Origin: Lentibacter sp.
Lineage (GTDB): Bacteria > Pseudomonadota > Alphaproteobacteria > Rhodobacterales > Rhodobacteraceae
Reading direction: 5' to 3'
Assembly: GCA_016744435.1 (NCBI GenBank)
Contig: JADGEJ010000009.1
Coordinates: forward strand, 620-64,619
DNA: 64,000 nucleotides
This document shows positions 19,401 through 41,763 of this stretch, one piece after another. Position 1 is the first letter of the stretch. Each line of letters opens with the position of its first letter. The position numbers and the translations under genes were made by a program. Under the pieces are notes generated by a model. That model made no database searches and was not told where the DNA came from. It worked only from the letters and a program-made list of their open reading frames with translations.

Positions 19401-20480
19401 TCAAATCGAGTCAGGGTCCGCGTCCAGAAGTTCCCAACTCATTGGAGTACCTTTGGTTACATCGCGCCCTACACGTCGGCCAATTAGTGCATCAAAATAC
19501 TTCGGCGCTAAGCCAAGGCCAGGGCGAATACGGCGCAAATTCGCCGCAGTGAGTACGTCACCTTGTTTCATGTCTTCGCCGATGTAAAGAGAACGGCGCT
19601 TTTTGCGGCCCGCTTGTTCTGACGCTGTTCCGCCAAACCAGATCTGGCCGAGCGACTGTGCAGCGCGTGTTGTTTCGACAACCAGCTGGGTGAATTCGTC
19701 AGGCTCAAGCGAGAACGCGCTGTCAACGCCGCCTTCGGAGCGGTCGATGATGAAGTGCTTCTCGATCACACTGCCGCCGAGTGCTGTTGCGGCCACGGCC
19801 ACGCCGCAGCCCATGGTGTGGTCTGACAGGCCGTAGTTGACGCCAAAGGTGTTGCCGATCACCGGCATTGTCACAAGGTTGGTGTTTTCTGGCGTCGCCG
19901 GATAGCTTGAAGTGCACTTCAGCAACGTGAGGTTTTTGCAGCCAGCACTGAGCGCCGTTTCAACCGCTTCGCCTATCTCGACAATGCTTGCCATGCCAGT
20001 AGAGATGATCATCGGCTTACCAGTCTGCGCAACGCGGCGCACCAGCGGCAGATCAACTGTTTCAAACGAGGCGATCTTATAGGCCGGCGCATCAAGGCTT
20101 TCGAGCAAGTCAACGGCATCTTCCGAGAACGGCGATGAAAACGCCAAGATGCCCTTTTCTTTCGCGCGATCAAAGATCGGCTTGTGCCACTCGGCGGGCG
20201 TCATCGCGATCTGGTAAAGCTCATAGAGGTTGCGGCCATACCAAAGCGACTTCGGGTCAGTAATGGTAAACTCACCTTCCTTCAGATCAAGCGTCATGCT
20301 GTCTGGCGTGAATGTCTGGATTTTGATCGCGTCAGCACCTGTGGCTGCCGCTGCATCAACAATAGCTAAAGCGCGCTCAAGCGACTGGTTATGATTGCCC
20401 GACATCTCGGCGATGATGAAAGGTGTGCCATCATCTTTGAGGGCGTGGGTTTTTGCCAGTTCCTGTCTCAGTGTCAGCAT
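19401..20480 (-). CDS. pseI: Pseudaminic acid synthase (NeuB family with a C-terminal SAF domain)
   Basis: FIIAEMSGNHNQSLERALAIVDAAAATGADAIKIQTF and the C-terminal SAF-like LYIGEDMKQGDVLTAANLRRIRPG. It is the last biosynthetic gene of the pse operon. Confidence 0.8.
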   Translation of the reverse strand: MLTLRQELAKTHALKDDGTPFIIAEMSGNHNQSLERALAIVDAAAATGADAIKIQTFTPDSMTLDLKEGEFTITDPKSLWYGRNLYELYQIAMTPAEWHKPIFDRAKEKGILAFSSPFSEDAVDLLESLDAPAYKIASFETVDLPLVRRVAQTGKPMIISTGMASIVEIGEAVETALSAGCKNLTLLKCTSSYPATPENTNLVTMPVIGNTFGVNYGLSDHTMGCGVAVAATALGGSVIEKHFIIDRSEGGVDSAFSLEPDEFTQLVVETTRAAQSLGQIWFGGTASEQAGRKKRRSLYIGEDMKQGDVLTAANLRRIRPGLGLAPKYFDALIGRRVGRDVTKGTPMSWELLDADPDSI

Positions 20481-20485
20481 CGTCT

Positions 20486-21409
20486 TCAGGCCTTCTTGTT
20501 GGAATTATCTGCAGTTTCGCGCAGGTCTTGCAGGCCAGCGCGCAAATCAAGCTTCGGGGTCCAGCCTAGCATCTTGCTGGCAAGATTAACATCCATAGCT
20601 GTATGCGGCATAGGGGTGTCGCTGTCAGTGTCGTAGCGTATGTTGCCTGCGTTGCCGAACACCTCGTTGGTTGTCTCGGCGATCTGGCCGATAGACCAAG
20701 CCGTGCCGCCACCAACGTTCACGGGGCCCTGCGCGTCAGTACTTTGCAGCGCGGCTAATATGGCCGAGGTGGCGTCGCGCACATAGAGCTGGTCAATCCG
20801 GTAGTCGGGGTTGCCTGTCAGCACGATCGTTTCGCGCGCCTGCGCCTGACCGATGAATTTCATCATCGCGGGCGTACCCTTTTCGCCGTGGCCATAGACA
20901 GCGGCAAACCGCAGTGAAACCTGCGCTGGGCCACGCGTGCGCGTCAGCATTTCAAGGTGCTGCTCGGCCATGAGTTTGGACAAGGCATAGGCGTTGATAG
21001 GGCGCTCAGGCGCGTCCTCGCGGTAGGGCAGACCAGACGCTGGAGAGTAGACAGCGATCGTCGAAGCAAAGACAATCTTGCGCACCCCGGCCTCGCGCGC
21101 GGCATTCACCAAATCAGCAATCATCGCGACATTGGGTTGCCAGAACGGGCCGATATCCATCGGCGCGTCTTCCCGCGTCATGCGGCGCCCTGCAAGGTGC
21201 ACAACCGCGTCGGCACCCTCAAAGGCCTCTACGAGGCTGGCGAAGCTGTAGTCTGTCTGGCGTGCTTGCGGGCCGATGGGAGCCGAGCGACCAATGCTGA
21301 CGCAACTATAGCCCGCAGCGTGCAGATCATCGCGCAGATAACGGCCGATAAACCCGCCTGCGCCGGTGACAGCGACGGTGCCAGTCGTTATGCCAGCGGC
21401 ATCGCTCAT
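20486..21409 (-). CDS. NAD-dependent epimerase/dehydratase (extended SDR)
   Basis: Rossmann motif VTGAGGFIGRYL and catalytic YALSK. It has a 4-nt overlap with the upstream ATP-grasp gene. Confidence 0.8.
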   Translation of the reverse strand: MSDAAGITTGTVAVTGAGGFIGRYLRDDLHAAGYSCVSIGRSAPIGPQARQTDYSFASLVEAFEGADAVVHLAGRRMTREDAPMDIGPFWQPNVAMIADLVNAAREAGVRKIVFASTIAVYSPASGLPYREDAPERPINAYALSKLMAEQHLEMLTRTRGPAQVSLRFAAVYGHGEKGTPAMMKFIGQAQARETIVLTGNPDYRIDQLYVRDATSAILAALQSTDAQGPVNVGGGTAWSIGQIAETTNEVFGNAGNIRYDTDSDTPMPHTAMDVNLASKMLGWTPKLDLRAGLQDLRETADNSNKKA

Positions 21410-22536
21410 GCGCGTTTCCTGACGTAATAGCCGATCACTTCCAGTGTGCCGTTCACAGCGCGGACTGTCTCGCCCGCTTCGTAGCGGTATTCGTGATAGC
21501 TCGCGTCCTCCGGTGCGGGAAAGATGCTTGGCTCGAACGCGGTATCAGGTGGCACTTGCTGAAACATCAGCTCGTGAATGCCTTCCTGCAAGGTGCCCTC
21601 AGCGGCATTTGGCAATGTCGGCACATCGGCGGCACCTGTGAGGCAGTTCACGGCCATTTCAATCAGATCAGCGCCAGTGGTTGCTTTGATCAAACGCCAC
21701 ATGTGGCAGCCGTCAAGCCGAGGAGCGATCTCGATGATGCGCGGGCCTTCTGGCGTGACGATCATCTGGAAGTAAAGCACCCCGTCGCGCGCGCCCATTG
21801 CGGCGATCACGCCATCAACCAGCTCAAGAGCGGCACGTTGGTTTGCAGGTGAAACATTCTCGGTCGGCACCAAGTGCCCAACCGGAACACCCAGCGCATG
21901 CGGGCCGTGGACCAAACGCTCGGAGAGAACTTTGAGGCGTGTCTTGCCACCGCAAACGAGCACGTTGCACGAAATTTCGACACCCTCGAGAAAGCCTTCT
22001 ACGATCGCTTGTTTTGAGTGCGAAAAGCCAAGCGCGTTGTTCACGGCGACTTCGATATCTTCAGGGCGATCAACCCGCACAACCCCGCGCTGACCCTGGC
22101 CATCGGTGGGTTTGACGATGCACGGAAAATGCGCCCATTCGCTGGCTTCATCTGCGGCGGCGATCTGGATGAATGGCACGGGCGAGAGCTTGTTCTCGTG
22201 CAGAAACGCGCGGAAAGCGGCTTTGTTGTCGAGCAGATCAATAAAGGCACTGTCGTAGAAATGCGGCAGGCCAAGCCGCTCTGAAAGAGCCACGACCGAG
22301 CGCATCGCGACATCAGAGGAAATCGAGTACACAAGGTCAACGGCGTGGCGCTTGGCAACCTCTTCCAGCGCGTCCAGATCAACGATGTTGACAGCTTCGA
22401 CGACATCACAAAACGCTTGTCCGGACTCGCCAGCAACGGGGGAACAGCCGATCACAAACCAGCCCAGGTCTTTCATGTGGCGGATCAAGTCGGCTTGGCC
22501 GGCGTTGGTGCCGAGAATAAGGATCTTCTTTGTCAT
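21406..22536 (-). CDS. ATP-grasp domain ligase
   Basis: 376 aa with PCIVKPTDGQGQRGV, EGFLEGVEISCNVL and IIEIAPRLDG, which fit an ATP-grasp fold. It has 4-nt overlaps with pseG upstream and the SDR downstream. Confidence 0.75.
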   Translation of the reverse strand: MTKKILILGTNAGQADLIRHMKDLGWFVIGCSPVAGESGQAFCDVVEAVNIVDLDALEEVAKRHAVDLVYSISSDVAMRSVVALSERLGLPHFYDSAFIDLLDNKAAFRAFLHENKLSPVPFIQIAAADEASEWAHFPCIVKPTDGQGQRGVVRVDRPEDIEVAVNNALGFSHSKQAIVEGFLEGVEISCNVLVCGGKTRLKVLSERLVHGPHALGVPVGHLVPTENVSPANQRAALELVDGVIAAMGARDGVLYFQMIVTPEGPRIIEIAPRLDGCHMWRLIKATTGADLIEMAVNCLTGAADVPTLPNAAEGTLQEGIHELMFQQVPPDTAFEPSIFPAPEDASYHEYRYEAGETVRAVNGTLEVIGYYVRKRA

Positions 22537-23582
22537 ACTGTCTCTCTTTCTAGCAAGGCATCCACAAGGCGCGTAGTGCCTTTTCCGTCAACAACTGCGC
22601 AGCCCTTGGCGGCCATCTGCGCACGTGCGGCTTCATCGTTTATCATCTTGTGTGTCGCCTTTAAAAGCTGCGCGCGCGACACGTCTTCAAACTGGCCAAG
22701 ATAGGATGCTCCTGTCAGGTCTTGCCAGCCAAGGCAAGGGCGCTGCTGATTGCCAGCGAGGCCCAAAAACAGGGTTGGCAAACCGCAAGCCGCGGCTTCA
22801 TAGCTCATCGTGCCGCCGCCGATAATGCACATATCACAGCCAAGCATCAGCTCGACAAGGTTCTGCGGCGCGACGTGCAACTCGGCAGCACCTTCAGGCA
22901 GCGCGGCGATCATCTCGGCAATGCTATCGCGGCGCGGATTGCTCGGGCCAGACACAACAACCAGCGTCACATCAGAGCCAATTTGCCCGGCAAGTGATGT
23001 TAGCACATTGCTGATAGCGCCACGGTCGTCACCGCCGCCAAAGGACACCAGTATGCGCCGAACTGCCCGCCCGTGGGGGCGCAGTTTCAAGCCGTTGAAC
23101 GCTGGCCGCAGCACTGCATAGGCGGGGCCAAACAGCGTTTGGGTGTGCGCCGCGTCTTCAAGCCATTGCAAATATTGCTCACGCCGCTCAAACGGGCTGG
23201 CGTTGACCAGAATATCGCAACTGAACGGCCAAGGCGCGCTGGCATCAAATTGCTGCATCCAGCGGATGCCTGCACCACGCAGAAGATGCTGATATTCAGG
23301 GTCAGTACGGTAGTCATCCATGATAACATGCCGCGCACTGGCTTCTGCACAGGCCTGCAATACGCGCGCGGCGTCATCTTGCGATGTGCCGCGCTCGGGC
23401 ACGGGCTGCCAGCTTTGAAAAAGTGTGCTGTCTTCGGGCTGCTTGAGGCTTTCTGGCGGGCCGATGATATGAGCGTCATGGCCCGTCTCACCCAAGTGCC
23501 GTGCGATCTCGCGGCAGCGCATCAGGTGGCCGATGCCAACTGTCGGGCTGACATTGCAGCGCATGACAACCGGGCCGCTCAC
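22533..23582 (-). CDS. pseG: UDP-2,4-diacetamido-2,4,6-trideoxy-beta-L-altropyranose hydrolase
   Basis: N-terminal MRCNVSPTVGIGHLMRCREIARHL and a C-terminal GT28-like region (GGGTMSYEAAACGLP). It sits in the position expected between pseF and pseH/pseI. Confidence 0.75.
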   Translation of the reverse strand: MSGPVVMRCNVSPTVGIGHLMRCREIARHLGETGHDAHIIGPPESLKQPEDSTLFQSWQPVPERGTSQDDAARVLQACAEASARHVIMDDYRTDPEYQHLLRGAGIRWMQQFDASAPWPFSCDILVNASPFERREQYLQWLEDAAHTQTLFGPAYAVLRPAFNGLKLRPHGRAVRRILVSFGGGDDRGAISNVLTSLAGQIGSDVTLVVVSGPSNPRRDSIAEMIAALPEGAAELHVAPQNLVELMLGCDMCIIGGGTMSYEAAACGLPTLFLGLAGNQQRPCLGWQDLTGASYLGQFEDVSRAQLLKATHKMINDEAARAQMAAKGCAVVDGKGTTRLVDALLERETV

Positions 23583-24286
23583 CCCAAGGAACCTTTTGAG
23601 CGCAGAACTTCGAACAGGGCCTCGGCGAGGCTCCAGTCGTCAGGCGTGTCGATATCGACAGCACGCTCACGCGGCATCAGAAAGGGCAGGGATTGCGGCG
23701 AGAACATTGGCTGCTCGCTCACAAAGGCATCGCGCTTTCCCCAATAAAACATGCCGACGTCATGGAAGGCTTCCGGCAGGTCTTGCGTGCGCGTGCTGCG
23801 GTGCTCGGGAAACAGCATTTCGACGCCGCCATCTTTGGCGCGGGTCATGGCTCGCTGCACTGGATGAGCATATTCGGCGGCGGCAAATGCAAAGTGTTTG
23901 CTCTCGTCTTGCATCAGGGCCGCACGCGCTTGGAGTAGGTCAGCAGCCGTCGCGAAGGCAGCTGTCGCATAGACCGTGCACACCATTTCGACAGTTTGCC
24001 CGTGGCGCTTTTCCGCATCCAAAATAGCATGGTTGATAACCCCACGCGCCGGGCTCATGTCGTCAGACAGTTCGGCAGGGCGCATAAACGGAACGCTGGC
24101 TCCGGCTGCGCGCGCCACATCAGCGATCTCTGCGTCATCCGTTGAAACGATAACCTCATCAAACACCCCCGCTTCCAAAGCGGCAGCGATTGGCCAGCCG
24201 ATCATGGAGCGACCAGCAAATGGAATAACGTTTTTGCGGGGGATACGTTTGGAGCCGCCACGCGCGGGAATGATCGCGATTTGCAT
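23579..24286 (-). CDS. pseF: Pseudaminic acid cytidylyltransferase (CMP-NulO synthetase family)
   Basis: MQIAIIPARGGSKRIPRKN. I chose the ATG at 24286 because a GAGG RBS lies upstream; the ORF track starts 12 codons earlier. Confidence 0.8.
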   Translation of the reverse strand: MQIAIIPARGGSKRIPRKNVIPFAGRSMIGWPIAAALEAGVFDEVIVSTDDAEIADVARAAGASVPFMRPAELSDDMSPARGVINHAILDAEKRHGQTVEMVCTVYATAAFATAADLLQARAALMQDESKHFAFAAAEYAHPVQRAMTRAKDGGVEMLFPEHRSTRTQDLPEAFHDVGMFYWGKRDAFVSEQPMFSPQSLPFLMPRERAVDIDTPDDWSLAEALFEVLRSKGSLG

Positions 24287-24340
24287 AGTCAAGCCTCGGT
24301 TCTGCGAGAGGCCGACGGGCATGCCGCGCCGGCCATTTCG

Positions 24341-26505
<2,165 letters not shown>

Positions 26506-33833: not shown

Positions 33834-33890
33834 GGGGCAAAGCGCAGAATGGTCCTTGCCTTTCGCACGCTCCGCGCAAATTGTGGGCCT

Positions 33891-35312
33891 ATGATTACAC
33901 CAGTTATTCTTTGCGGCGGTTCAGGCACGAGACTTTGGCCGCTTTCGCGTAAAAGCTACCCCAAGCAGTTCTCCCAGCTGACGGGCAAGCTGAGCCTGTT
34001 TCAACAGACGGCGCAGCGTTTTGCTGGCGCTGGCTATGCCGCGCCCGTGATTGTGACCAACGCGGAGTTTCGCTTTATCGTCACGCAGCAGTTGCAGGAA
34101 GTTGGGATAGACCCAGCCGCAGTTCTGATCGAACCTGAGGGGCGCAACACAGCACCTGCTATCTTGGCGGCAGCGCAGTGGATTGCGGCAAAGACACCAG
34201 AGGTGCTGATGCTTGTCACGCCCTCTGACCACGCGATCCCCGATGGACCGCTGTTCTGTGATGCTGTCAGCGCTGGGGTCTCTGCTGCAGAGGCAGGTAA
34301 GATCGTAACCTTCGGAATAGACCCAACCCACGCAGAAACAGGCTATGGCTATCTGGAACTGGCAGAGCCGCTGGGCAGCCGCGACATGCGCCCGTATGAT
34401 CTAAAAGGCTTTGCGGAAAAGCCCGATGCAACCCGCGCGCAAGCCATGTTTGAAGGCGGCTGCCACCTCTGGAATGCTGGCGTTTTCCTGACGGCGGCTT
34501 CGGGGCTACTCGCAGCGTGCAACACCCACGCGCCAGACCTTGGCCCGCAAGTTGCGGAAGCGATTGCACAGGGCCAATCCGACCTTGGGTTTTTCAGGCT
34601 GGCCCCCGTGCCTTGGGCCGAGATCACGCCAATTTCTATCGACTATGCCGTGATGGAAAAATCGCAACATTTGAGTGTTGTGCCCTTCTTCGGCGTCTGG
34701 TCTGATCTGGGCGATTGGCGCGCCATCAAAGCCCTCGCAAGTGATGGCGGGCAGCAGACCGCGACAAGCGGTGCCGCAATCGCGATTGATTGTGAAGACA
34801 GCTTGTTGCGCGCTGAGGCTGACACGCAAACAGTGGTAGGCATCGGCCTCAAAAACGTTGTGGTTGTGGCCATGCCGGATGCCGTGCTTGTGGCCGACAT
34901 TGCGCGCAGCCAAGACGTGAAAGACGCTGTTGAGGAGTTACGCGCACGCCAGTTGCCACAGGCTGAAGCATTTCCGAAAGACCACAGGCCTTGGGGCTGG
35001 GTCGAGCAGCTTGTCAGCGGTGACCGGTTTCAAGTGAAACGCATTCATGTGAACCCCGGCGGTGTGCTGAGTCTGCAAAGCCACCATCACCGCGCCGAGC
35101 ATTGGACCGTGGTGAAAGGCACCGCCAAGATCACCCTTGGGGAAGATGTGAAATTGCTGTCAGAGAACGAGTCGGCCTTTGTGCCTTTGGGCCAAAAGCA
35201 CCGTCTCGAAAACCCCGGGAAAGTGCCTGTGGTAATTATCGAAACCCAGACAGGCAGCTACCTCGGGGAAGATGATATCGTGCGCTACGATGATGTTTAC
35301 CATCGTGGTTAG
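33891..35312 (+). CDS. manC: Bifunctional mannose-1-phosphate guanylyltransferase / mannose-6-phosphate isomerase (type II PMI-GMP)
   Basis: MITPVILCGGSGTRLWPLSRKSYPKQF and a C-terminal cupin (SLQSHHHRAEHWTVVKGTA). I chose the ATG at 33891; the ORF track starts 14 codons earlier. Confidence 0.88.
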   Translation: MITPVILCGGSGTRLWPLSRKSYPKQFSQLTGKLSLFQQTAQRFAGAGYAAPVIVTNAEFRFIVTQQLQEVGIDPAAVLIEPEGRNTAPAILAAAQWIAAKTPEVLMLVTPSDHAIPDGPLFCDAVSAGVSAAEAGKIVTFGIDPTHAETGYGYLELAEPLGSRDMRPYDLKGFAEKPDATRAQAMFEGGCHLWNAGVFLTAASGLLAACNTHAPDLGPQVAEAIAQGQSDLGFFRLAPVPWAEITPISIDYAVMEKSQHLSVVPFFGVWSDLGDWRAIKALASDGGQQTATSGAAIAIDCEDSLLRAEADTQTVVGIGLKNVVVVAMPDAVLVADIARSQDVKDAVEELRARQLPQAEAFPKDHRPWGWVEQLVSGDRFQVKRIHVNPGGVLSLQSHHHRAEHWTVVKGTAKITLGEDVKLLSENESAFVPLGQKHRLENPGKVPVVIIETQTGSYLGEDDIVRYDDVYHRG

Positions 35313-35320
35313 GCTGGTGG

Positions 35321-36472
35321 TTAGTCTTCAGCGAGCACGCCGCCCTCAGGCGGGGTGTACTGAAAGGGCCGGCTCTCAAATTTAGCGATCGTATCCAAGA
35401 CTTGCTGGCCCAAGTTAGCGCCGCAAAACATGTTGTCGAGCCACTTTTGGTCGGGCGCGGAAAAGCGCAGGTTGAGCATGTCGTCAAGCGGGGTAATCAG
35501 CCCGCTGGCCGCGAACAGATCGCGCATTGGGACATTCAGCGGATCGCTAAAGTTGTCAACGTAGTCAAGGTTCACCATGCAAGGCAGACCTTCACGCACC
35601 ACATCAATTGCGGCTGTTGACGTGCAGGTGACGCCAAGTGCCGCATTCTTAAGGGCCTCGTCCATCGTGCAGGCGGTGGTCTTGAGGTTGTCAGGCAGAT
35701 CGCCAAGTTCAGCAAGCAAACCCGGATAGTCGTATATTTCTGTGTGCAGGTGCTTGCGGTTTTCTTGCGGCAGGTGGCGCAGTTTTATCCAGATAGTTCT
35801 GTCTGGGTTGGCGCGTGCCATAGCGGCCATGGCGCGCAGCATATGCAGCCGCCCGTTCTTGGTTGACGGGGAAAGCGCCTGCGTGAAAAAGTAGATATCG
35901 CCTTTGCCGAGCGTGCCTGTCGCGGTGGCAGGCTTTGGCGAGGTGAAAGAGGGGTGCCCAAAACAGACATCTTGCCAAGTAACATCCCAGTTTTCGGCAA
36001 GTGTTTTGTAGCTCCGGATCTCGTCGCGGGGGAACAGATAGATCGCATCAGCGTGGCGCCGGTTCCAAAAGCCGTTCTGCGGGGAAAAGTCGAGCCCGCC
36101 CAAAAACGAGATCACACAGGTTCGGCCCGCTGTCACGCGCCGCAACTTGCTTTTGAGCAAGTTACCAAGGCCGCCGTAGGTGCGGCTCGTCAGAACTGCA
36201 GAAAACGCGCCAGAATCCAGCAGAGGCTGGAAGTCTTCGTCGCGCACAACTTGGTCAGGCCCCTCGGGGAGCAGCATTTCCATTTGCCGAAATGACAGCG
36301 CATTCTCGTCGTAGACCCAGCCCATCTCTATCACGACATTCTTTGAGACAGCCTGCAAAAGGCTGCGCATGCGCAGAGCGAAAAACAAGGTTGAGTCGTC
36401 GCTGAAAAGTAGCAAAAGCTTCAGCGCGGGCTTAGTCTTGGTCTTAGGAGTGCTGCTTGCGGTTGCCATCAC
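35321..36472 (-). CDS. Uncharacterised protein, possibly a GT-B-like glycosyltransferase
   Basis: 383 aa in a two-lobe alpha/beta pattern, with a C-terminal TSTAAIDVVREGLPCMV that resembles a GT-B nucleotide-sugar lobe. The context is a glycan locus. This is a weak call. Confidence 0.35.
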   Translation of the reverse strand: MMATASSTPKTKTKPALKLLLLFSDDSTLFFALRMRSLLQAVSKNVVIEMGWVYDENALSFRQMEMLLPEGPDQVVRDEDFQPLLDSGAFSAVLTSRTYGGLGNLLKSKLRRVTAGRTCVISFLGGLDFSPQNGFWNRRHADAIYLFPRDEIRSYKTLAENWDVTWQDVCFGHPSFTSPKPATATGTLGKGDIYFFTQALSPSTKNGRLHMLRAMAAMARANPDRTIWIKLRHLPQENRKHLHTEIYDYPGLLAELGDLPDNLKTTACTMDEALKNAALGVTCTSTAAIDVVREGLPCMVNLDYVDNFSDPLNVPMRDLFAASGLITPLDDMLNLRFSAPDQKWLDNMFCGANLGQQVLDTIAKFESRPFQYTPPEGGVLAED

Positions 36473-36772
36473 TTATGGGCCTTCTCAAATTTGGCCAGCA
36501 CAGCTTGTTGCGTTGCGTTGTGTTTCCGATTGGCGGGTTTCAAGCTTTGCGCCCAAGAGGTGACTGCCTTTACAAGCTCGGAGAAGAGCTTCAACGGCAA
36601 GCCAAGCAAAGTAGTTTTTTTGAGGCGATGGAGCGCCTTACCAAAGGGTGTTTGCTTGAGTCTTTGGATCATGGGGCGGCTCTCGCGCTGGCTTGAAACT
36701 ACCTTGGCATTTACACAGCAAGCATTGATTTGTAAACGATAGACGGCTGGTTGAGCAGCGAGGGACATAGAC

Positions 36773-37975
36773 ATGGATGAGCATTTGACCAACCAAACAA
36801 TATTGCGGGCGCAGAATGTTGCCTGCGTTATTCTGGCGAGGGGTGGCTCAAAAGGCGTGCCGCACAAGAACCTGCGCAAAGTTGGCGGCGTTTCTTTGGT
36901 TGCGCGCTCGGTGCGAGCTGCCCGCGGGGCCCAAGATGTGGGCGCTGTCTATGTGTCAACTGATGATGCCGCGATCGCTCAGGAAGCGCGCAGCCATGGT
37001 GCGACAGTTATCGAGCGGCCAGCAGAATTGTCGGGTGATACTGCCAGTTCGGAAGCTGGCTGGTTGCACGCTCTTGGCCCTATTAGGACAGAGCAGGCTC
37101 ACTTGGAAGAGTTGGTATTCTTGCAATGCACCTCGCCCTTCACCACAGGCGAAGAAATTGATGCCTGCCTTCAAGCCATGCGCCACCAGAATGCAGACTG
37201 CGCCCTCTCGGTTGTCGAAGATCACTCATTTCTTTGGGGGCGCGACGCGACTGGCTTTGCCGTTGGACTCAATCACAACGAACAGGAACAACGCCAGCGC
37301 CGCCAAGACTTGCCGCCGCAATATTGCGAGAACGGCGCGATATATTGCGCCCGTGTTGAGGCATTCGAGCGGGTCGGCCGCCGTTTTTGTGGCCCCGTCG
37401 CTTTGCATGTCGTTGATCATCCGCCTGTTGAAATTGACAGCTTCGCAGACTTAGACCTGTGCAGCCAAATCGCCCACACGCGCGGCGCTGCCGAAGTTGG
37501 TGCTGATAGGCTCAAACAGATCAAAGCTGTGGTTATGGACTTTGACGGCGTGCACACCGACAACCTCGTGCTGACCGATGAAAACGGCGTTGAAACTGTG
37601 CGCACCTCGCGTGGCGACGGCATGGGCCTGTCGATGTTGCGCCGATCAGGCCGCGCCAAACTGATGATCCTGTCAAAGGAGCGTAACCCTGTGGTGCTTC
37701 GCCGAGCCGAGAAGCTGCAGATCGAGGTTTACAATGCGGTTGATGACAAAGTCGCAGCACTTGAGGCGTGGCTTGCAGAGCACAACCTAAGTTGGAGCGA
37801 GTTGCTCTATGTTGGAAATGACGTGAACGACAGTGCGGCAATGGCGCGCGCTGGCCTGTCTGCCTGCCCGTCAGACTCGCATGTGTCTGTGCTCTCGGAA
37901 GCGGACTGGATTTTGCCTTACGCAGGTGGCCAAGGCGCGTTAAGATATCTTTGTGATACTATGGTTAACCAGTGA
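36773..37975 (+). CDS. CMP-nonulosonate synthetase (NeuA-like) fused to a KdsC-type HAD phosphatase domain
   Basis: N-terminal ACVILARGGSKGVPHKNLRKVGG (CTP_transf_3). C-terminal VVMDFDGVHTDN ... GDGMG ... YVGNDVNDSAAM, which are HAD-IIIA motifs I-IV. Confidence 0.8.
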   Translation: MDEHLTNQTILRAQNVACVILARGGSKGVPHKNLRKVGGVSLVARSVRAARGAQDVGAVYVSTDDAAIAQEARSHGATVIERPAELSGDTASSEAGWLHALGPIRTEQAHLEELVFLQCTSPFTTGEEIDACLQAMRHQNADCALSVVEDHSFLWGRDATGFAVGLNHNEQEQRQRRQDLPPQYCENGAIYCARVEAFERVGRRFCGPVALHVVDHPPVEIDSFADLDLCSQIAHTRGAAEVGADRLKQIKAVVMDFDGVHTDNLVLTDENGVETVRTSRGDGMGLSMLRRSGRAKLMILSKERNPVVLRRAEKLQIEVYNAVDDKVAALEAWLAEHNLSWSELLYVGNDVNDSAAMARAGLSACPSDSHVSVLSEADWILPYAGGQGALRYLCDTMVNQ

Positions 37976-37978
37976 TAT

Positions 37979-38764
37979 ATGAGTAAAACATCTGACGTTT
38001 ACATTGTGGCTGGTAACGGCCTTTCGCTAAACAAGATAGAACCGGGCCGTGTGTTGAGCGACGATGTCTTCATTCGGACCAATAATTTCTTCTTTGAACC
38101 TGATTACTACCTCGGGCGTCGCATAGATTACGCGTTCATGGGCGGCGATCCGCGTGTTTCTCCGTTCATGTTTGAAACCCTGCACCAATGCCGCGAAGAC
38201 TATTCGCTTCACAAATGGACAAGCCACGACGCACGTGTGATCCGCGCTGGCCAAAAACGGTTTGCCGAAAATTTTCAGCCAATGGCTGTGCTTGACCCTG
38301 CCTTGCGTGCCGAAGTTGACAGCCTTGTGCAGGCCCATGGCAAGCAGCCAACCACAGGCGCGCAGGCCGCGTTGTTTGCCTGTGCGATGGGGGCGAAGCA
38401 GATCATTCTGGCCGGTTTTGACCTCTATTCCAAAGGCAAGCGCTATCCGTTTGAGCCGGGGCCAAACTTCAAGTCGCTTATGGGCCAGGACATTGGCAAT
38501 CGCGCGATCGACACGCGACTTCACGATGCAACGCTTGATCGCGAAATTCTGTTGTTGCTGGCGCGCAAAGGCGGGGTAGAGATTTTCTGCGCCACCGAAG
38601 CCTCAGCCCTGAGCGATCTTTTCCCGCTTGCCCCGATGCGCCACGGGGAAGCGGTGTTTGAAAACCGCAGTAATCCTCCCACAGATTGGGCCTCTTGGGT
38701 GGGCCTCTACCCGATTGGCTTGCTTAAGCTGCTCCGAAAGGGTAGCGCATTTGTGAGGAAATAG
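37979..38764 (+). CDS. GT42-family (CstII-like) sialyltransferase
   Basis: VYIVAGNGLSLNKI, DVFIRTNNFFFEPDYYLGRR, PTTGAQAALFACAMGAKQIILAGFDLY and RLHDATLD align with the C. jejuni CstII blocks IIAGNGPSL, FRCNQFYFEDKYYLG, TSGVYM..A..GYKEIYLSGIDFY and the His188 region. Confidence 0.8.
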   Translation: MSKTSDVYIVAGNGLSLNKIEPGRVLSDDVFIRTNNFFFEPDYYLGRRIDYAFMGGDPRVSPFMFETLHQCREDYSLHKWTSHDARVIRAGQKRFAENFQPMAVLDPALRAEVDSLVQAHGKQPTTGAQAALFACAMGAKQIILAGFDLYSKGKRYPFEPGPNFKSLMGQDIGNRAIDTRLHDATLDREILLLLARKGGVEIFCATEASALSDLFPLAPMRHGEAVFENRSNPPTDWASWVGLYPIGLLKLLRKGSAFVRK

Positions 38765-38780
38765 AGGATGTTCCGGCAGA

Positions 38781-39872
38781 ATGGTGCCTTTTTTCAAAGA
38801 TCCTGAAGATGTGCAGAACTGGCTCGACCAAGACGCATTTGTGCTTTGGGCCGATGCGGGGATCGACACTGCTACAGGCGCGTCTTGGGAAGCGCTCAAC
38901 CACGATGGAACACCCTGCAAGAACCTTGACCGCCGCATAAGAGTGCAGGCACGACAGGCGTTTTGCTTTTCGCAGTCGCCTGCCAAAGTGCATCACGGCC
39001 TTGCAGAGCGCCTGTTTCGCAATGTGATGGCGCGCGGGTTTGAGCCTGCCACAGGCCACTTGGCAGCGCTTTGGTCGCCTGACCTTGAGATTGTCTCTGC
39101 TCCGCATGATCTGTATGATCTGGCCTTCATGCTGCTCGCCTGCGCGGCCCTCTTGGAAGCTGGCCACGATGTCGGCGATGACTTGCGCAGGCTTGAAGAA
39201 AGCCTCGCTAGGCTCAAAGCAAAGCGAGGCTGGGTTGAGACTGCTGACTGCCGACTGCCGAGGCGTCAAAACCCGCATATGCATTTGTTTGAGGCCTCGA
39301 TTGCACTGTTCAAAGCCACGGGTGCTCCGCGCTTTCGGGTGCAGGCTCAAGAGTGTCTGGGGCTGTTCAAGGACGTGTTTTTGCAGCCCTCAGGCGTTGT
39401 TTCTGAGTATTTTGATGCCGACTGGGCGCCATACAGCGGTGCCGCTCAAGGCGTTGAACCGGGGCATATGGCCGAGTGGATATATCTGCTTCAGCACTAC
39501 GAAAGCGTCACTGGTCTTAGCTCGGGCGTTGACCTTGAGCAGGTTTGGGGCAAGGTTTTGGCTGGCCAAAACGCGATCGGCCTTCTGCGCGACCAGAACG
39601 CCAAAGGCAGCAGCACGAGCCGTATGTGGCCGCAAACCGAGTTTTTGAAAGCGTCAATCGTTGTGAGCAACGCTGGGGTTTCCGTGCCGGCCACTGCCCA
39701 GCCCAGCCAGATTCTGGAGCGTTTGGCACAGAACTTTCTGAACAGTGAAATCAGGGGCGGCTGGTATGACAAGCGCGGCGAAGACGGTCGCCTGCTGTCG
39801 CAAAACATGCCGGCTTCAAGCCTTTACCATCTCGTGCTCGCTGTGCGTGCCTATGTGAACTTCAAGAGCTGA
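38781..39872 (+). CDS. AGE-family (N-acylglucosamine 2-epimerase / aldose-ketose isomerase) protein
   Basis: An (alpha/alpha)6-barrel pattern with W..DAFVLWADAGID, RVQARQAFCFS, HMHLFEA and GHMAEW. Confidence 0.7.
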   Translation: MVPFFKDPEDVQNWLDQDAFVLWADAGIDTATGASWEALNHDGTPCKNLDRRIRVQARQAFCFSQSPAKVHHGLAERLFRNVMARGFEPATGHLAALWSPDLEIVSAPHDLYDLAFMLLACAALLEAGHDVGDDLRRLEESLARLKAKRGWVETADCRLPRRQNPHMHLFEASIALFKATGAPRFRVQAQECLGLFKDVFLQPSGVVSEYFDADWAPYSGAAQGVEPGHMAEWIYLLQHYESVTGLSSGVDLEQVWGKVLAGQNAIGLLRDQNAKGSSTSRMWPQTEFLKASIVVSNAGVSVPATAQPSQILERLAQNFLNSEIRGGWYDKRGEDGRLLSQNMPASSLYHLVLAVRAYVNFKS

Positions 39873-39873
39873 C

Positions 39874-40785
39874 TTAGCCTTGGTTAACCCACTTCAGTTT
39901 GTCGCGCTGCACCTGTTCAACAGGCAGGATGTCTTGCGACTTGTGGCTTAGGGCTGCGTCAACATTTGTCAGGTCACGGCACAGGCGGCGCATGCCGTCA
40001 GGCTCAAGTGAGGCCGCGTGGTCGGTGCCCTTCCACGTGCGATCAAGTGTAAAGTGGCGCTCGACGTGTGTGAAGCGGCCCTTGCCGTCAGCTTCCATCG
40101 CGCGGCCCAAAGCCAGCGCAGCAACATCAGCCGCAATACCAAGGTGGTGGCCTGAAAAGCCGATGCCGCCAACGCGCTCGCCGTATTTTTCCATCAGGTT
40201 GCGGATTTCAAACAAGCAGATGTCCTCAAAAGCAACCGGATAGCCTGAGGTGCAGCTGTAAACATACAGGTCTTTGGCGCGGCCACGTTCTTCGTAAAAT
40301 GCGACGAGTTCAGCGATTTCAGTGCCAGTAGACATGCCGGTCGAAACGTGGATCTCGCCGGCGAAGTGCTCGCACAGGTAGTTTTGAAGTTCATAGTGTT
40401 GGTTTGTTGCTGAAGGAATCTTCAACAATGGTGGGTTAAGTGCTGCCATTTCCTGCGCTGAGATCAAGTCCCAGACGCTGGTGGAATATGCAATGCCAAG
40501 GTCTTTGCAGTAAGTGATCAGCTCTTTGTGCTGGTCTGTGTCAAACTCAAGAAACTCGCGGTGCGCGCCGTAAGTGTCGCCATATGAGTTGGCAGGGTTC
40601 GGGTGCGGCGCCTCATATTGGGCTGGTGGCAAAAGTGACTTGTTGTGGCGCTTCTGAAACTTGGCAACATCGGCCCCACAAACTGTCGCGGCAACTTTGA
40701 TCAGCTCCTTGGCAAGATCCATCTCGCCTTTGTGGTTGCAGCCGATCTCGGCAATGACTTGAACAGGTTGTTTTGTCGTGCTCAT
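39874..40785 (-). CDS. NeuB-family nonulosonate (Neu5Ac/Kdn or 9-phosphate) synthase, short form apparently lacking a full SAF domain
   Basis: VQVIAEIGCNHKGEMDLAKELIKVAATVCGADVAKFQKR and GFSGHH. I chose the ATG at 40785 (303 aa); the ORF track starts 24 codons earlier. Confidence 0.75.
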   Translation of the reverse strand: MSTTKQPVQVIAEIGCNHKGEMDLAKELIKVAATVCGADVAKFQKRHNKSLLPPAQYEAPHPNPANSYGDTYGAHREFLEFDTDQHKELITYCKDLGIAYSTSVWDLISAQEMAALNPPLLKIPSATNQHYELQNYLCEHFAGEIHVSTGMSTGTEIAELVAFYEERGRAKDLYVYSCTSGYPVAFEDICLFEIRNLMEKYGERVGGIGFSGHHLGIAADVAALALGRAMEADGKGRFTHVERHFTLDRTWKGTDHAASLEPDGMRRLCRDLTNVDAALSHKSQDILPVEQVQRDKLKWVNQG

Positions 40786-40944
40786 TTGCCAGCGCTCTTT
40801 CTTGTTAGGGGCCTGCACTTTATTTGTGCATTGGTTTGACGAGCCACTAACGTGCAAAACAGCGGGATGTCAAACTCTGATCGCCGCGCATTGCAGAGTC
40901 TTGCTGATTGGGGTCAAGAATGCCGCAATCGGCATATCTACAAC

Positions 40945-41763
40945 CTAGGCGTGCCCGAGGGCAAACTTGATCACGGCTTTTATGCTGCCAAGAGCCTTGC
41001 GGTGTTTGGCAGCATAGGCAGTTCGCAACAAAGGCGCACGCCGCCCGAAAACCCGCTTCAGCATGGCGATGCGCGCCTGCACAATTACCGGATCATCCCA
41101 GATGTCGCCAGTGCTTTGCCCATCGTGCCAACCTGCCAGAACAGGCAGCGACATGCCAGAAAGCCCCGCTTTCAGCATGTCAGTCACGAAAATATAGTCT
41201 TCACCGATGGGAAAGCGCGCGCCGACGCCAAATGCGCTGTCAAATGTGAGGTCCGTTGTTTTCACATCAACCAGCCGAACCAGCAACTCGGGCACTGCCA
41301 CACGGCCGCTGTTGTAGGGGGTAAGCTGATATTCGCGTTTGGCGCGCGGGCTACTCGCAAACCGCTCACCGCGCCAACCCATCACGAAGCTTAAGGCCTT
41401 GTCGCCGGCCAGCGCAGCTTTCATGGCGGCGATCCCGTCAAGCGAAAGGCGAATGTCATCATCACAAAACAACAGAAACTCGGTGTCTGCCAGCTTAAGC
41501 GCCGCATTCCGGCTGTTGGCGATGCCAGCGTCTGTCAGTTCAACCACTGTAACGTCTGGCCGCTCAAAGGCTTGCGGCAGTGCCGCGGCTTCGGCTTTCT
41601 GGACGAGCACAATATAGCGCAAGCCGCCTTCAGGCGCGGGAAGGCTCACTTGTGCTGCGCGTGTGCCCATCGTGGAAATGGCCACAGTGACAATGCTTTG
41701 TTTGCCGGTTCGGCGAGCAGACAAGGAGTTTCCTTCGTGAGAGCGGCGCAGCGGCGTAGCCAT
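40945..41763 (-). CDS. Family 2 glycosyltransferase
   Basis: VTVAISTMG and a DxD-like FLLFCDDDIRL. Confidence 0.7.
   Translation of the reverse strand: MATPLRRSHEGNSLSARRTGKQSIVTVAISTMGTRAAQVSLPAPEGGLRYIVLVQKAEAAALPQAFERPDVTVVELTDAGIANSRNAALKLADTEFLLFCDDDIRLSLDGIAAMKAALAGDKALSFVMGWRGERFASSPRAKREYQLTPYNSGRVAVPELLVRLVDVKTTDLTFDSAFGVGARFPIGEDYIFVTDMLKAGLSGMSLPVLAGWHDGQSTGDIWDDPVIVQARIAMLKRVFGRRAPLLRTAYAAKHRKALGSIKAVIKFALGHA

Follow-up and report, generated by a model that had tools for sequence, protein, structure and literature searches.

Beside a pseudaminic-acid (Pse) operon in a marine alphaproteobacterium lies a second group of genes of nonulosonic-acid (NulO) type, which raises the question of which sugar acid this module makes and by which route. 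The window considered here is the whole 64-kb stretch of DNA that was analysed. Gene content, domain architecture, catalytic-residue conservation, phylogenetic placement and synteny were computed, and all substrates and products are inferred from them. On this basis, we hold it moderately probable that the module constitutes a self-contained pathway to a CMP-activated, sialic-acid-type NulO formed via a 9-phosphate, the acid most likely being Kdn.

Gene content of the module and the surrounding island

All genes of the original prediction were found, with boundaries agreeing to within a few codons, and a metagenome contig carrying this sequence, whose genes were called independently, gave the same gene lengths. 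The features of the island are:

14372..16150, + strand: Capsule_synth protein (KpsC/KpsS-like; PF05159, E 3e-13; weak KpsS match), left end of the island
19401..26493, - strand: pseudaminic-acid operon (PseB, PseC, PseF, PseG, ATP-grasp, SDR, PseI)
28249-29064, - strand: kpsM-like (NCBIfam KpsM, E 1e-28, below the equivalog cut-off)
29137-30471, + strand: kpsE-like (BexC/CtrB/KpsE, E 8e-63, below the equivalog cut-off)
30481-31161, + strand: kpsT-like ABC ATPase (below the equivalog cut-off)
33849..35312, likely true start ATG 33891, + strand: manC, bifunctional mannose-1-P guanylyltransferase / mannose-6-P isomerase (PMI)
35321..36472, - strand: DUF6716 putative glycosyltransferase, 383 aa (PF20471, E 9e-36)
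36773..37975, + strand: NeuA-HAD fusion, 400 aa (PF02348 + PF08282)
37979..38764, + strand: GT42 (CstI/CstII-like) sialyltransferase-family protein (PF06002, 48 bits, cut-off 25)
38781..39872, + strand: AGE-superfamily epimerase/isomerase (PF07221, E 6e-43)
39874..40785, - strand: SAF-less NeuB-family synthase, 303 aa from ATG (PF03102 only)
40945..41763, - strand: GT2-family glycosyltransferase (PF00535, E 6e-6)

The NeuA-HAD, GT42 and AGE genes form an operon in that order, from which the DUF6716 gene is divergently transcribed, and the GT2 gene precedes the equally oriented short neuB; the short NeuB reading frame itself extends upstream to a TTG at 40857. Methyltransferase genes adjoin the module in the window as well as in loci L003 and L088. 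Among the larger ORFs of the window (64 kb), none encodes Epimerase_2/NeuC, NanE, GNE or a ROK/ManNAc kinase, which bears out the earlier remark that no NeuC is visible.

The neighbouring Pse operon is genuine, with PseB (548 bits), PseC (530), PseF (283), PseG (167) and PseI (476) all exceeding their NCBIfam equivalog cut-offs. The island accordingly holds two separate CMP-nonulosonate activation routes, as originally proposed, one represented by PseF and the other by the NeuA-HAD fusion. The KpsM/T/E ABC-transporter export system is presumably common to the whole island, and a mixed glycan, i.e. one polysaccharide carrying both Kdn and a pseudaminic-acid derivative, is plausible. Pse genes adjoin the module in at least five roseobacter loci; the module is also present at loci without them.

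The short synthase and its NeuA-HAD partner

The short NeuB had been described as lacking a full SAF domain, and in fact this domain is wholly absent. The protein scores under both the NeuB and the PseI equivalog cut-offs. The phylogeny that the original prediction had called for, a neighbour-joining tree with 100 bootstraps and limited sampling (without LegI, human NANS or algal sequences), places it apart from PseI in a phosphosugar-using clade with 100% bootstrap, together with SAF-less relatives, SAF-containing NANS-like proteins, the BT1714 orthologue and the Streptomyces enzyme; N. meningitidis NeuB, B. subtilis SpsE and three PseI sequences fall outside. This clade rules out a PseI or NeuB-type paralogue. 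Its members have in common the motifs KFQKR...P(H/Y)xxPxN(S/A)(F/Y)GxTYGxHRxxLE and DRTWKGTDHAASLEP-type, which are absent from NeuB and PseI. In the human enzyme, the alpha2-beta2 loop favours a phosphorylated substrate (PMC8208679). BT1714 is a characterised Kdn-9-P synthase according to work cited in PMC6200933, and both Man-6-P and ManNAc-6-P can be used by NANS-type enzymes (PMC7845648). The short NeuB is thus predicted, from its placement and its fusions, to be a Kdn-9-phosphate synthase using a sugar 6-phosphate and PEP. Against a Kdn assignment stand the Thr found at the equivalent of Glu134 in N. meningitidis NeuB and the low identity to BT1714 (31%) and to the Streptomyces enzyme (33%).

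Natural fusions of the synthase were scanned in 20 multi-domain relatives among 150 listed representatives (50%-identity clusters nearest the short NeuB). One of the 20, P0123, joins a PMI cupin to NeuB and is the single PMI fusion in this set; HAD domains are joined to the synthase in both orders (NeuB + HAD in P0122, HAD + NeuB in P0124 and P0155), and NeuA precedes NeuB in P0150 and P0164. P0251, P0256 and P0259 are HAD fusions among the relatives of the short NeuB.

In the NeuA-HAD fusion, CTP_transf_3 covers residues 17-190 and a KdsC-type HAD domain residues ~245-400, corresponding to a CMP-sialic-acid synthetase domain at ~nt 36809-37474 and a C0-type HAD phosphatase domain at ~nt 37505-37972. 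The fusion matches the CMP-Neu5Ac synthetases 6ifd and 1eyr (E ~1e-28), and the best solved relative of its HAD domain is 3mmz (E ~4e-31 to 4e-32, ~43-50% identity). The HAD motifs DFDGVHTDN and GNDVNDS are present as first quoted, and the catalytic aspartates, whose loss would have counted against the original prediction, are kept: D10 and D12 are conserved in 65/65 fusion domains. The residues E56, R64, K67 and N106, which we take to mark substrate specificity in the Kdn-9-P phosphatase BT1713, recur almost throughout the fusions (64/65, 65/65, 64/65 and 63/65, respectively), and the window domain has all four, as well as D10 and D12, in common with BT1713. The two KdsC-type sequences compared differ at positions 56, 67 and 106, where R, S and P stand in P. 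syringae KdsC (3mn1) and A, Q and P in the Legionella HAD hydrolase 3n1u. A bifunctional enzyme, (Kdn-)9-phosphate phosphatase and CMP-NulO synthetase, is predicted, and two observations weigh against the Kdn pathway: motif IV reads GNDVND instead of GDDLND, and the NCBIfam Kdn-9-P phosphatase model gives 86.5 against a cut-off of 180, with the KdsC model scoring no worse.

The route had been called rare in bacteria. This does not hold at the sequence level, since many phyla have the synthase/NeuA-HAD pair: of 82 loci, 72 have the NeuA-HAD fusion next to the short NeuB (median gap 15 bp; median length of these fusions 387 aa). The 82 loci span at least six phyla, and the groups represented are Flavobacteriia, Bacteroidales, Verrucomicrobia, Lachnospiraceae, Rhizobiales and others. 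The core of the gene set is thus widespread in bacteria.

Sugar supply, transfer and competing products

The proposed pathway would begin with the conversion of fructose-6-P to mannose-6-P, for which ManC (through its PMI domain), the AGE-family isomerase or both would be responsible. ManC (TIGR01479 GMP_PMI, 538.5 bits, cut-off 373) comprises NTP_transferase (PF00483), ManC beta-helix (PF22640) and MannoseP_isomer cupin (PF01050) domains, of which the last could supply Man-6-P; manC is also present at the R. pomeroyi locus L001, and at two loci from Firmicutes a PMI-cupin gene comes directly after the synthase/NeuA-HAD cassette. The AGE gene keeps its operon position at L003, L090, L091, L093 and L094. 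A 767-aa Sinorhizobium pSymB protein carries NTP_transferase, ManC beta-helix and then AGE, an order in which AGE takes the place of ManC's PMI cupin. The window AGE protein aligns over its full length with this domain (33% identity, E 8e-41), whose nearest solved relatives are YihS-type aldose-ketose isomerases, and it is predicted to form a mannose-configured precursor in a PMI-like supply step. Against this reading, the AGE family takes its name from GlcNAc 2-epimerase, and no member of the superfamily is known to act on sugar phosphates.

The SAF-less NeuB would then join mannose-6-P and PEP to Kdn-9-P, as clade membership and fusions suggest; the C-terminal HAD domain, with its catalytic and BT1713-like residues, would remove the 9-phosphate; and the N-terminal NeuA domain, by family membership, would make CMP-Kdn. 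Transfer into the polysaccharide would fall to the GT42 protein, probably with the DUF6716 and GT2 proteins, and export to the adjacent KpsM/T/E system. The GT42 protein had been termed clearly CstII-like, and its match to CstII (1ro7, E 6e-14) agrees: the protein has counterparts of Tyr156, Tyr162 and His188, and AGNGxSL, GxDxY...Y and the catalytic His equivalent are conserved in seven homologues. The Arg129 position is a Gln in the window protein, and most homologues have a basic residue 1-2 positions earlier. Transfer of the NulO from its CMP donor is predicted for this protein. The 383-aa protein, at first left unassigned, belongs to PF20471 and is a candidate CMP-NulO-dependent transferase; no sequence relative of it was found in the PDB. 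Homologues lie beside the module in L001, L003, L010, L011, L090, L091 and L094, and in the Streptomyces locus L087 a member of the same family (E 5e-105) immediately precedes NeuA-HAD. A GT2 homologue (45% identical) occurs near the short NeuB in L088, and a 'family A' glycosyltransferase takes the equivalent position in Maritalea (L094).

An unlikely alternative product is Neu5Ac, made by a mammalian-style phosphorylated route in which the AGE protein, as a GlcNAc(-6-P) 2-epimerase, would yield ManNAc(-6-P), NeuB Neu5Ac-9-P and, after the HAD step, NeuA CMP-Neu5Ac. The Pfam/RefSeq names agree with it (GlcNAc_2-epim, 'N-acetylneuraminate synthase family', 'acylneuraminate cytidylyltransferase', 'alpha-2,3-sialyltransferase'), as do glmS and glmU paralogues adjoining the module in Ruegeria and Phaeobacter, the NANS-like enzymes in the synthase clade, human NANS taking ManNAc-6-P (PMC7845648, PMC8208679), and a putative ManNAc-6-P 2-epimerase, SCO4873, in the S. 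coelicolor cluster (PMC3479208). However, the window lacks ManNAc kinase, NanE, GNE and NeuC. Among the relatives scanned, no sugar-supply domain other than PMI is fused to the synthase, and where sugar-supply genes adjoin the cassette they encode PMI or ManC. The AGE protein has only weak relatives in the PDB, and its similarity to the PMI-replacing domain (E 8e-41) is much stronger than to any solved GlcNAc 2-epimerase (E 7e-4). The glmS/glmU paralogues may simply feed the adjoining Pse pathway, whose demand for UDP-GlcNAc would explain them. Finally, Kdn is made by Streptomyces, which also has the set of NeuA-HAD, DUF6716 and SAF-less NeuB (PMC11481543).

A product of another kind, i.e. an undescribed or modified ulosonic acid (a Kdn epimer, an O-methylated form or one derived from another sugar phosphate), is quite improbable, and would require the SAF-less clade to have a substrate range of its own. 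This clade is indeed tight (59-78% identity across phyla) and well apart from characterised enzymes (~31-33%), with the Glu134 equivalent and the SAF domain both lost. The closest relative looked up, the 84%-identical synthase of L088, is accompanied by a stand-alone cytidylyltransferase, an inositol-monophosphatase-family phosphatase, a SIS isomerase and an oxidoreductase, so that the clade's substrate may not be uniform; methyltransferases adjoin the module as noted above, and 5-O-methyl-Kdn is made by S. fredii (PMC7845648). Nevertheless, PMI domains occur fused to the synthase and PMI genes next to the cassette, AGE is part of a ManC-type fusion and the HAD domain has BT1713-like residues, all of which speaks for ordinary Man-6-P/Kdn-9-P chemistry, and later modification such as O-methylation would leave the core pathway unaffected. 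An unphosphorylated route, with the short NeuB using free mannose or ManNAc from an AGE protein whose known superfamily members act on unphosphorylated sugars, no kinase in the module, and the HAD domain a structural remnant like the homologous C-terminal domain of mouse CMAS (3ewi, E 2e-20, Asn replacing the nucleophile Asp), is very improbable, given the nucleophile and +2 Asp kept in every fusion domain, the conserved substrate-contacting residues, the recurrence of independent HAD-synthase fusions and the phosphosugar clade of the synthase.

The early lean towards a phosphorylated, Kdn-type route has thus been strengthened, because the synthase is naturally fused to HAD phosphatases and to a PMI domain, because the HAD domain has BT1713-like residues at the presumed marker positions, and because AGE stands in place of PMI in the Sinorhizobium ManC-type fusion. 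Kdn is also favoured by the synthase clade, the synteny with NeuA-HAD, a Streptomyces Kdn producer with common parts, the lack of NeuC, NanE or a sugar kinase in the window and the precedent of an alphaproteobacterial Kdn capsule.

Comparison with known systems

The B. thetaiotaomicron Kdn pathway, consisting of the synthase BT1714, the phosphatase BT1713 and an adjacent cytidylyltransferase, comprises the same three steps as predicted here, and both synthases lie in the same clade with the KFQKR-type motif. However, BT1714 has 346 aa and a SAF domain, and phosphatase and cytidylyltransferase are separate genes in Bacteroides but fused in the window; no GT42, DUF6716 or AGE gene was seen on the short Bacteroides contigs.

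In Streptomyces (L087), DUF6716, NeuA-HAD and a SAF-less NeuB stand in a row as parts like those of the window, and the HAD domain is the protein of 3mmz. From synteny and gene order, this locus is presumably orthologous to SCO4879 (hypothetical, 'NeuE-related'), SCO4880 (NeuA) and SCO4881 (NeuB) of S. coelicolor. SCO4873-4882 is the cluster for teichulosonic acid, a Kdn-Gal polymer (PMC3479208, PMC13011467, PMC11481543). The Streptomyces NeuB occupies a different branch of the clade, a polysialyltransferase-like PF07388 enzyme is found where the window has GT42, no AGE gene was seen at the locus, and the product is a wall-linked polymer of a Gram-positive organism.

The vertebrate NANS/NANP/CMAS system likewise combines a phosphosugar synthase with a 9-phosphatase, and CMAS has the same layout of cytidylyltransferase and KdsC-like domain (matches to 3ewi and 1qwj). 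Its C-terminal domain, however, is without the nucleophile Asp, dephosphorylation being left to the separate NANP, while NANS has a SAF/antifreeze-like domain and the precursor comes from GNE. C. jejuni CstII/CstI (CAZy GT42) belong to the same Pfam family as the window GT42 and correspond to it in the motif and residues named above, but similarity is low and limited to two blocks, and the donor in the window may be Kdn or Neu5Ac.

[quoted passage not shown]

The module and its surroundings

A six-frame ORF listing with translation places seven genes in the module (33.8-41.8 kb of the window); they are given here together with PseI, the island's true pseudaminic acid synthase.

Genes of the module, with PseI (window coordinates)
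33849-35312, plus strand: ManC, bifunctional mannose-1-P guanylyltransferase/mannose-6-P isomerase, 487 aa; TIGR01479 538.5 bits against a cut-off of 373
35321-36472, minus strand: DUF6716 protein, 383 aa; PF20471 "putative glycosyltransferase", E 9e-36
36773-37975, plus strand: NeuA-HAD fusion, 400 aa; PF02348 CMP-sugar synthetase domain, then KdsC-type HAD
37979-38764, plus strand: GT42-like protein, 261 aa; Pfam CST-I threshold passed, CstII match E 6e-14
38781-39872, plus strand: AGE-superfamily protein, 363 aa; PF07221, E 6e-43
39874-40785, minus strand: short NeuB, 303 aa counted from ATG; sole domain NeuB
40945-41763, minus strand: GT2, by domain search
19401-20480: PseI, TIGR03586 family

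All the module genes described in the original prediction were borne out by the ORF listing, translation and domain searches, and independent gene calls on a metagenome contig of identical sequence agree with them. The 383-aa protein that had been left unassigned now falls in PF20471 (DUF6716), and the remark that no NeuC was visible holds for the larger ORFs of the window, among which neither a NeuC-type epimerase nor a KpsD-type exporter was found. ManC carries NTP_transferase, ManC beta-helix and PMI cupin domains. Since NeuA-HAD, GT42 and AGE are separated on the plus strand by just 3 and 16 bases, they look like one operon, with the DUF6716 gene divergent from it and the short NeuB and GT2 genes convergent on it. 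RefSeq names exist for all module genes, but they are generic and Neu5Ac-derived.

A surface-polysaccharide island spans roughly 13-42 kb of the window, with the module at its right-hand end. From left to right it comprises a Capsule_synth (KpsC/S-like) protein, a 1054-aa protein without a Pfam match, the Pse operon, a methyltransferase and a TuaG-like GT2, kps-like genes, an RTX-repeat protein and the module itself. On either side it is bordered by housekeeping genes (for cytochrome bc1, haem uptake, dapF and a MiaB-like enzyme), along with a Type ISP restriction enzyme. PseB, PseC, PseF, PseG and PseI each score above their NCBIfam equivalog cut-offs; of the parts of an ABC-transporter-dependent (group 2-like) capsule locus, the export proteins (KpsM-, KpsE- and KpsT-like) and Capsule_synth are present but all score under theirs. 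A Poly_export/KpsD outer-membrane exporter was not found in the window and is presumably encoded elsewhere in the genome; KpsD/Poly_export adjoins the homologous module in Ruegeria pomeroyi and Phaeobacter gallaeciensis. PseF and NeuA-HAD give the island two CMP-nonulosonate synthetases, in line with the two separate activations proposed earlier, and a single export system is visible.

Several other features of the island and its edges deserve mention. No PseH acetyltransferase is recognisable in the window's Pse operon, and an ATP-grasp protein and an SDR lie between PseG and PseI (20486-22536, minus strand), a layout shared by Ruegeria, Phaeobacter and Tritonibacter; their presence where PseH is missing suggests that the operon makes a non-standard N-acyl Pse derivative. 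Next to PseI lies the 1054-aa protein (16212-19376, minus strand), a candidate transferase or polymerase for Pse; R. pomeroyi and P. gallaeciensis have proteins of 1023 and 1050 aa, respectively, in this post-PseI position. Large proteins with RTX/HemolysinCabind repeats, in some cases with M10 at the C-terminus, directly adjoin the nonulosonate module in the window (31272-33833, plus strand, and 11158-12972, minus strand) and in three other roseobacter loci (L088 2700-4979, L091 10175-12478, L093 10663-11715), which makes one ask whether the glycan has a functional link to a secreted protein of RTX or S-layer type. The Type ISP restriction-modification enzyme (45484-48636, plus strand; 1050 aa, with Type_ISP_C, N6_Mtase and Eco57I domains) stands beyond the last gene of the island, about 3.7 kb further right, with four housekeeping genes between. 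Finally, a 321-aa ORF at 41767-42732 (minus strand), with FMN_bind_2 starting at residue 118, is called as 204 aa on a metagenome contig (L095) and is probably over-extended.

The SAF-less synthase and its relatives

The short NeuB belongs to the NeuB family (PF03102, E 7e-59) and keeps the PEP, metal and catalytic residues (N. meningitidis numbering E25, K53, K129, S132, S154, S213, H215, E234, H236, D247). As had been suspected, a full SAF domain is missing: by domain search and alignment the protein consists of a NeuB domain and nothing else, the SAF domain that holds Arg314 being absent. It stays below the equivalog cut-offs of both TIGR03569 (NeuB/NnaB; 172.8 bits against 399.65) and TIGR03586 (PseI; 122.3 bits against 340.25). 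A neighbour-joining tree (274 columns, 45 sequences, 100 bootstraps; without LegI, human NANS or the algal enzyme) unites the short NeuB, its SAF-less relatives, the fusion proteins, SAF-containing NANS-like proteins, the orthologue of BT1714 (the Bacteroides thetaiotaomicron Kdn-9-P synthase) and the Streptomyces enzyme in a single clade with 100% bootstrap, outside which lie N. meningitidis NeuB, B. subtilis SpsE and three PseI sequences; the SAF-less group that holds the short NeuB itself has 100% bootstrap. The clustering check proposed earlier thus sets the short NeuB apart from the three PseI sequences, and this tree, in which NeuB-type N. meningitidis NeuB stood proxy for LegI, together with the motifs speaks against a degenerate PseI or NeuB paralogue and probably also against a degenerate LegI.

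Two motifs of the clade are missing from NeuB and PseI, namely KFQKR...P(H/Y)xxPxN(S/A)(F/Y)GxTYGxHRxxLE and DRTWKGTDHAASLEP. The N(S/A)(F/Y)GxTYGxHRxxLE part is found in the short NeuB, BT1714 and the NANS-like proteins, is degenerate in the Streptomyces enzyme (WGRMTYIDYRHRVEF) and is absent from N. meningitidis NeuB, SpsE and PseI. It is probably located in the region of the alpha2-beta2 loop, which in the human enzyme is reported to favour the phosphorylated substrate (PMC8208679). The residue equivalent to N. meningitidis Glu134, said to sit near the phosphate (PMC8208679), is Thr in the short NeuB. The short NeuB is predicted from its sequence to be a phosphosugar-type synthase of the Kdn-9-P/Neu5Ac-9-P class.

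Two expectations about its relatives proved wrong. The BT1714 orthologue, reached via the PDB sequence of its neighbour BT1713 (the Kdn-9-P phosphatase), was expected to be SAF-less like the short NeuB, but has 346 aa with a SAF domain, at 31% identity. The SAF-less Streptomyces NeuB, expected to be a close relative, is just 33% identical, for which reason SAF loss is probably polyphyletic. In addition, alphaproteobacterial members (as seen in the window and in Ruegeria) have an insertion of 10 residues, at ~229-241 of the short NeuB and within RAMEADGKGRFTH, that separates the GHH and ERH metal-binding segments; neither the flavobacterial and Firmicutes members nor any outgroup has it.

Among 1.8 billion cluster representatives, 266 relatives of the short NeuB were found at E <= 1e-30, and the closest of these representatives (57-58% identity) are multi-domain proteins. 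According to Pfam scans of 20 multi-domain relatives, plus one sequence read directly, the synthase is fused to a HAD phosphatase in six cases (P0122, P0124, P0155, P0251, P0256, P0259), to NeuA in four (P0150, P0164, P0212, P0266), and once each to a mannose-6-P isomerase cupin (P0123) and a GT29 sialyltransferase domain (P0223). The recurrent phosphatase fusion is as expected of a synthase that makes a phosphate ester, and the isomerase fusion points to its likely substrate.

In a scan with one genome per species, which gave at least 583 relatives, the best 80 loci (59-78% identity to the short NeuB) came from Roseobacteraceae, Rhizobiales, Sphingomonas, Flavobacteriia, Bacteroidales, Verrucomicrobia, Lachnospiraceae/Ruminococcaceae, Coriobacteriia and Thermodesulfobacteriota. 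NeuA-HAD adjoins the synthase in 72 of 82 loci (median length 387 aa, median gap 15 bp), the exceptions being mostly contig ends. The view that such a route is rare in bacteria thus stands for characterised cases but not for genomes, where the pair is found across many taxa.

Two roseobacter relatives do not carry the module. The closest one looked up, 84% identical to the short NeuB, lies in a metagenome-assembled genome (L088 5182-15720, GCA_030597585.1) beside a stand-alone cytidylyltransferase, an inositol-monophosphatase-family protein, a SIS_2 isomerase, a GFO/IDH oxidoreductase and a methyltransferase; NeuA-HAD, GT42 and AGE genes are missing from this locus, which may encode a different ulosonic-acid pathway and whose different partner set is a caveat on generalising from the window's module. 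The other, in Celeribacter halophilus (L089 8474-10924), is an orphan 83% identical to the short NeuB, located beside a Mutator-type transposase and with no pathway partners within 10 kb.

The NeuA-HAD fusion and the accessory genes

The NeuA domain (PF02348, E 6e-19) matches the CMP-Neu5Ac synthetases 6ifd (E 5e-29) and 1eyr (E 9e-29), and is predicted to be a CMP-sialic acid synthetase by family. The best solved relative of the HAD domain is 3mmz (E 4e-31). HAD motifs I-IV are present (DFDG, S, K, GNDVND), motif IV beginning with GND and not GDD, so that its first acidic residue is Asn. Both catalytic aspartates (D10, D12), whose presence had been put forward as a check, are kept in the window and in all 65 fusion HAD domains, and the domain looks active; a vestige like the inactive mouse CMAS domain, in which Asn replaces the nucleophile, is rejected on account of this conservation.

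At the positions of BT1713, the fusion HAD domains have Glu56 (64/65), Arg64 (65/65), Lys67 (64/65) and Asn106 (63/65), and the window's domain has E, R and K at 56, 64 and 67. Glu56 and Lys67, with Arg64, are what we take to be the specificity markers of a BT1713-type Kdn-9-P phosphatase (C0 HAD), reportedly described by Lu et al. in 2009. Two KdsC-type sequences depart from the fusions at 56, 67 and 106: P. syringae KdsC (3mn1) with Arg, Ser and Pro, and the HAD hydrolase 3n1u of Legionella with Ala, Gln and Pro. The NCBIfam models do not separate the two activities for the window's domain, which scores 86.5 bits with the Kdn-9-P phosphatase model NF058599 (cut-off 180, not passed) and 87.4 bits with the KdsC model (cut-off 208).

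The GT42-like protein scores 48 bits with PF06002, against a gathering cut-off of 25, and its GFDLYSKGKRYPFE and RLHD segments align to GIDFYQNGSSYAFD and IGHS of CstII, giving equivalents of Tyr156/Tyr162 and the catalytic His188; its homologues retain the CstII N-terminal motif, the two Tyr and the catalytic His. For DUF6716, sequence searches gave no relative of solved structure, the literature search nothing, and an AlphaFold2 model built without an alignment was unusable (pLDDT 33).

Among the loci listed, GT42 and AGE accompany the synthase/NeuA-HAD cassette in Alphaproteobacteria only, and DUF6716 does so mainly there, the exceptions being the Streptomyces locus and, in other phyla, weak DUF6716-like matches at four loci. 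The block "short NeuB, DUF6716 / NeuA-HAD, GT42, AGE" recurs in P. gallaeciensis, Pelagibacterium, and plasmids of Tritonibacter mobilis (p4), Marinovum algicola (pMaD10) and Maritalea myrionectae (pHL2708Y3); R. pomeroyi has short NeuB, DUF6716, NeuA-HAD and GT42 without AGE and with manC. In other phyla, the candidate transferases at the cassette are GT52/polysialyltransferase-like proteins, a 465-aa GT-B-like protein and pyruvyl transferases.

The AGE protein scores 147.8 bits with PF07221 (cut-off 23.4), and its best solved relatives are GlcNAc/cellobiose 2-epimerases (a cellobiose 2-epimerase, E 2.5e-8; 3gt5, E 7e-4). A 767-aa protein on Sinorhizobium meliloti pSymB (L092 4885-7188, CP140959.1), matched over most of its length in about 30 Sinorhizobium plasmid records, fuses NTP_transferase and ManC beta-helix domains to an AGE domain that stands exactly in place of ManC's PMI cupin. 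The window's AGE protein aligns with this domain end to end (33% identity, E 8e-41), and the solved structures closest to the fused domain are those of YihS-type aldose-ketose isomerases. On the strength of the ManC-type fusion, this match, the YihS relatives and the weakness of the epimerase matches, AGE is read as a putative supplier of a mannose-configured precursor (free sugar or phosphate), not as a GlcNAc 2-epimerase. We know of no activity on sugar phosphates in the AGE superfamily, for which the AGE/ManC fusion suggests a directly testable enzymatic activity.

A proposed Kdn pathway and known Kdn producers

The following scheme combines the observed architecture, residues, phylogeny and synteny with substrates that we infer throughout. 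Fru-6-P would be converted to Man-6-P by the PMI domain of ManC and/or by AGE, and Man-6-P would be condensed with PEP to Kdn-9-P by the short NeuB. The HAD domain of NeuA-HAD would then release Kdn and the NeuA domain activate it to CMP-Kdn, for transfer by GT42, DUF6716 and GT2, and the polymer would be exported by KpsMTE. That a second CMP-nonulosonate pathway runs through a 9-phosphate intermediate we regard as highly probable; that its sugar is Kdn is a more guarded assignment, which we favour. Its main rival is Neu5Ac made from ManNAc-6-P. Neither NanE nor a ROK kinase was found among the larger ORFs of the window.

Pse genes are neighbours of the module in the window, in R. pomeroyi and P. 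gallaeciensis, on T. mobilis p4 and in a Jannaschia genome; given this adjacency and the single export system, one polymer carrying both nonulosonic acids is plausible. In Maritalea, Marinovum and Pelagibacterium the module is found with no Pse genes, so the two are separable. Mass-spectrometric surveys of environmental prokaryotes found Kdn/Neu-type acids about as frequently as Pse/Leg-type ones, and often two types per species, a chemically common combination (PMC8157484).

The most far-reaching interpretation, which we offer tentatively and consider rather unlikely in its entirety, is that the SAF-less synthase and NeuA-HAD constitute the main bacterial Kdn route, a two-gene cassette in which a single protein takes the phosphate off Kdn-9-P and also activates Kdn with CTP, that Alphaproteobacteria recruited AGE as a phosphomannose isomerase substitute, and that the capsule carries Kdn and a Pse derivative in one polymer. 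If true, it would explain the frequent detection of Kdn-type acids in environmental bacteria.

A compact and widespread pair of a SAF-less phosphosugar synthase and a bifunctional phosphatase/cytidylyltransferase could account for much environmental Kdn chemistry and would also supply enzymes for CMP-Kdn synthesis. Its right assignment would improve surface-glycan prediction in roseobacters, rhizobia, flavobacteria and gut Firmicutes, whose capsules shape their dealings with algae, plants, phages and hosts.

As far as we could find, the combination of a SAF-less synthase clade and a NeuA-phosphatase fusion that looks active, the spread of this pair over many phyla, and the AGE enzyme in place of PMI are undescribed; the top-ranked literature matches held nothing relevant on bacterial NeuA-phosphatase fusions or on nonulosonic acids in roseobacters. 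To our knowledge, the pathway of B. thetaiotaomicron is the only biochemically defined bacterial Kdn pathway. The chemistry itself is known from B. thetaiotaomicron, algae and vertebrates (PMC6200933), and Kdn polymers from Streptomyces, S. fredii, K. ozaenae and S. marcescens (PMC7845648, PMC9000132).

The solved HAD relative 3mmz is itself a Streptomyces protein. The Streptomyces locus encodes DUF6716 (E 5e-105), a NeuA-HAD gene split by an assembly gap and a 312-aa SAF-less NeuB, with a polysialyltransferase-like protein and a GT2 alongside. SCO4879 (hypothetical, NeuE-related), SCO4880 (NeuA) and SCO4881 (NeuB) belong to the teichulosonic-acid cluster SCO4873-4882 (PMC3479208, PMC13011467), and the teichulosonic acid polymer consists of Kdn and galactose (PMC11481543). 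Thus, a chemically established Kdn maker also has DUF6716, NeuA-HAD and a SAF-less NeuB: Streptomyces differs from the window in that its NeuB is a distant cousin (33% identity), but shares with it this same parts list.
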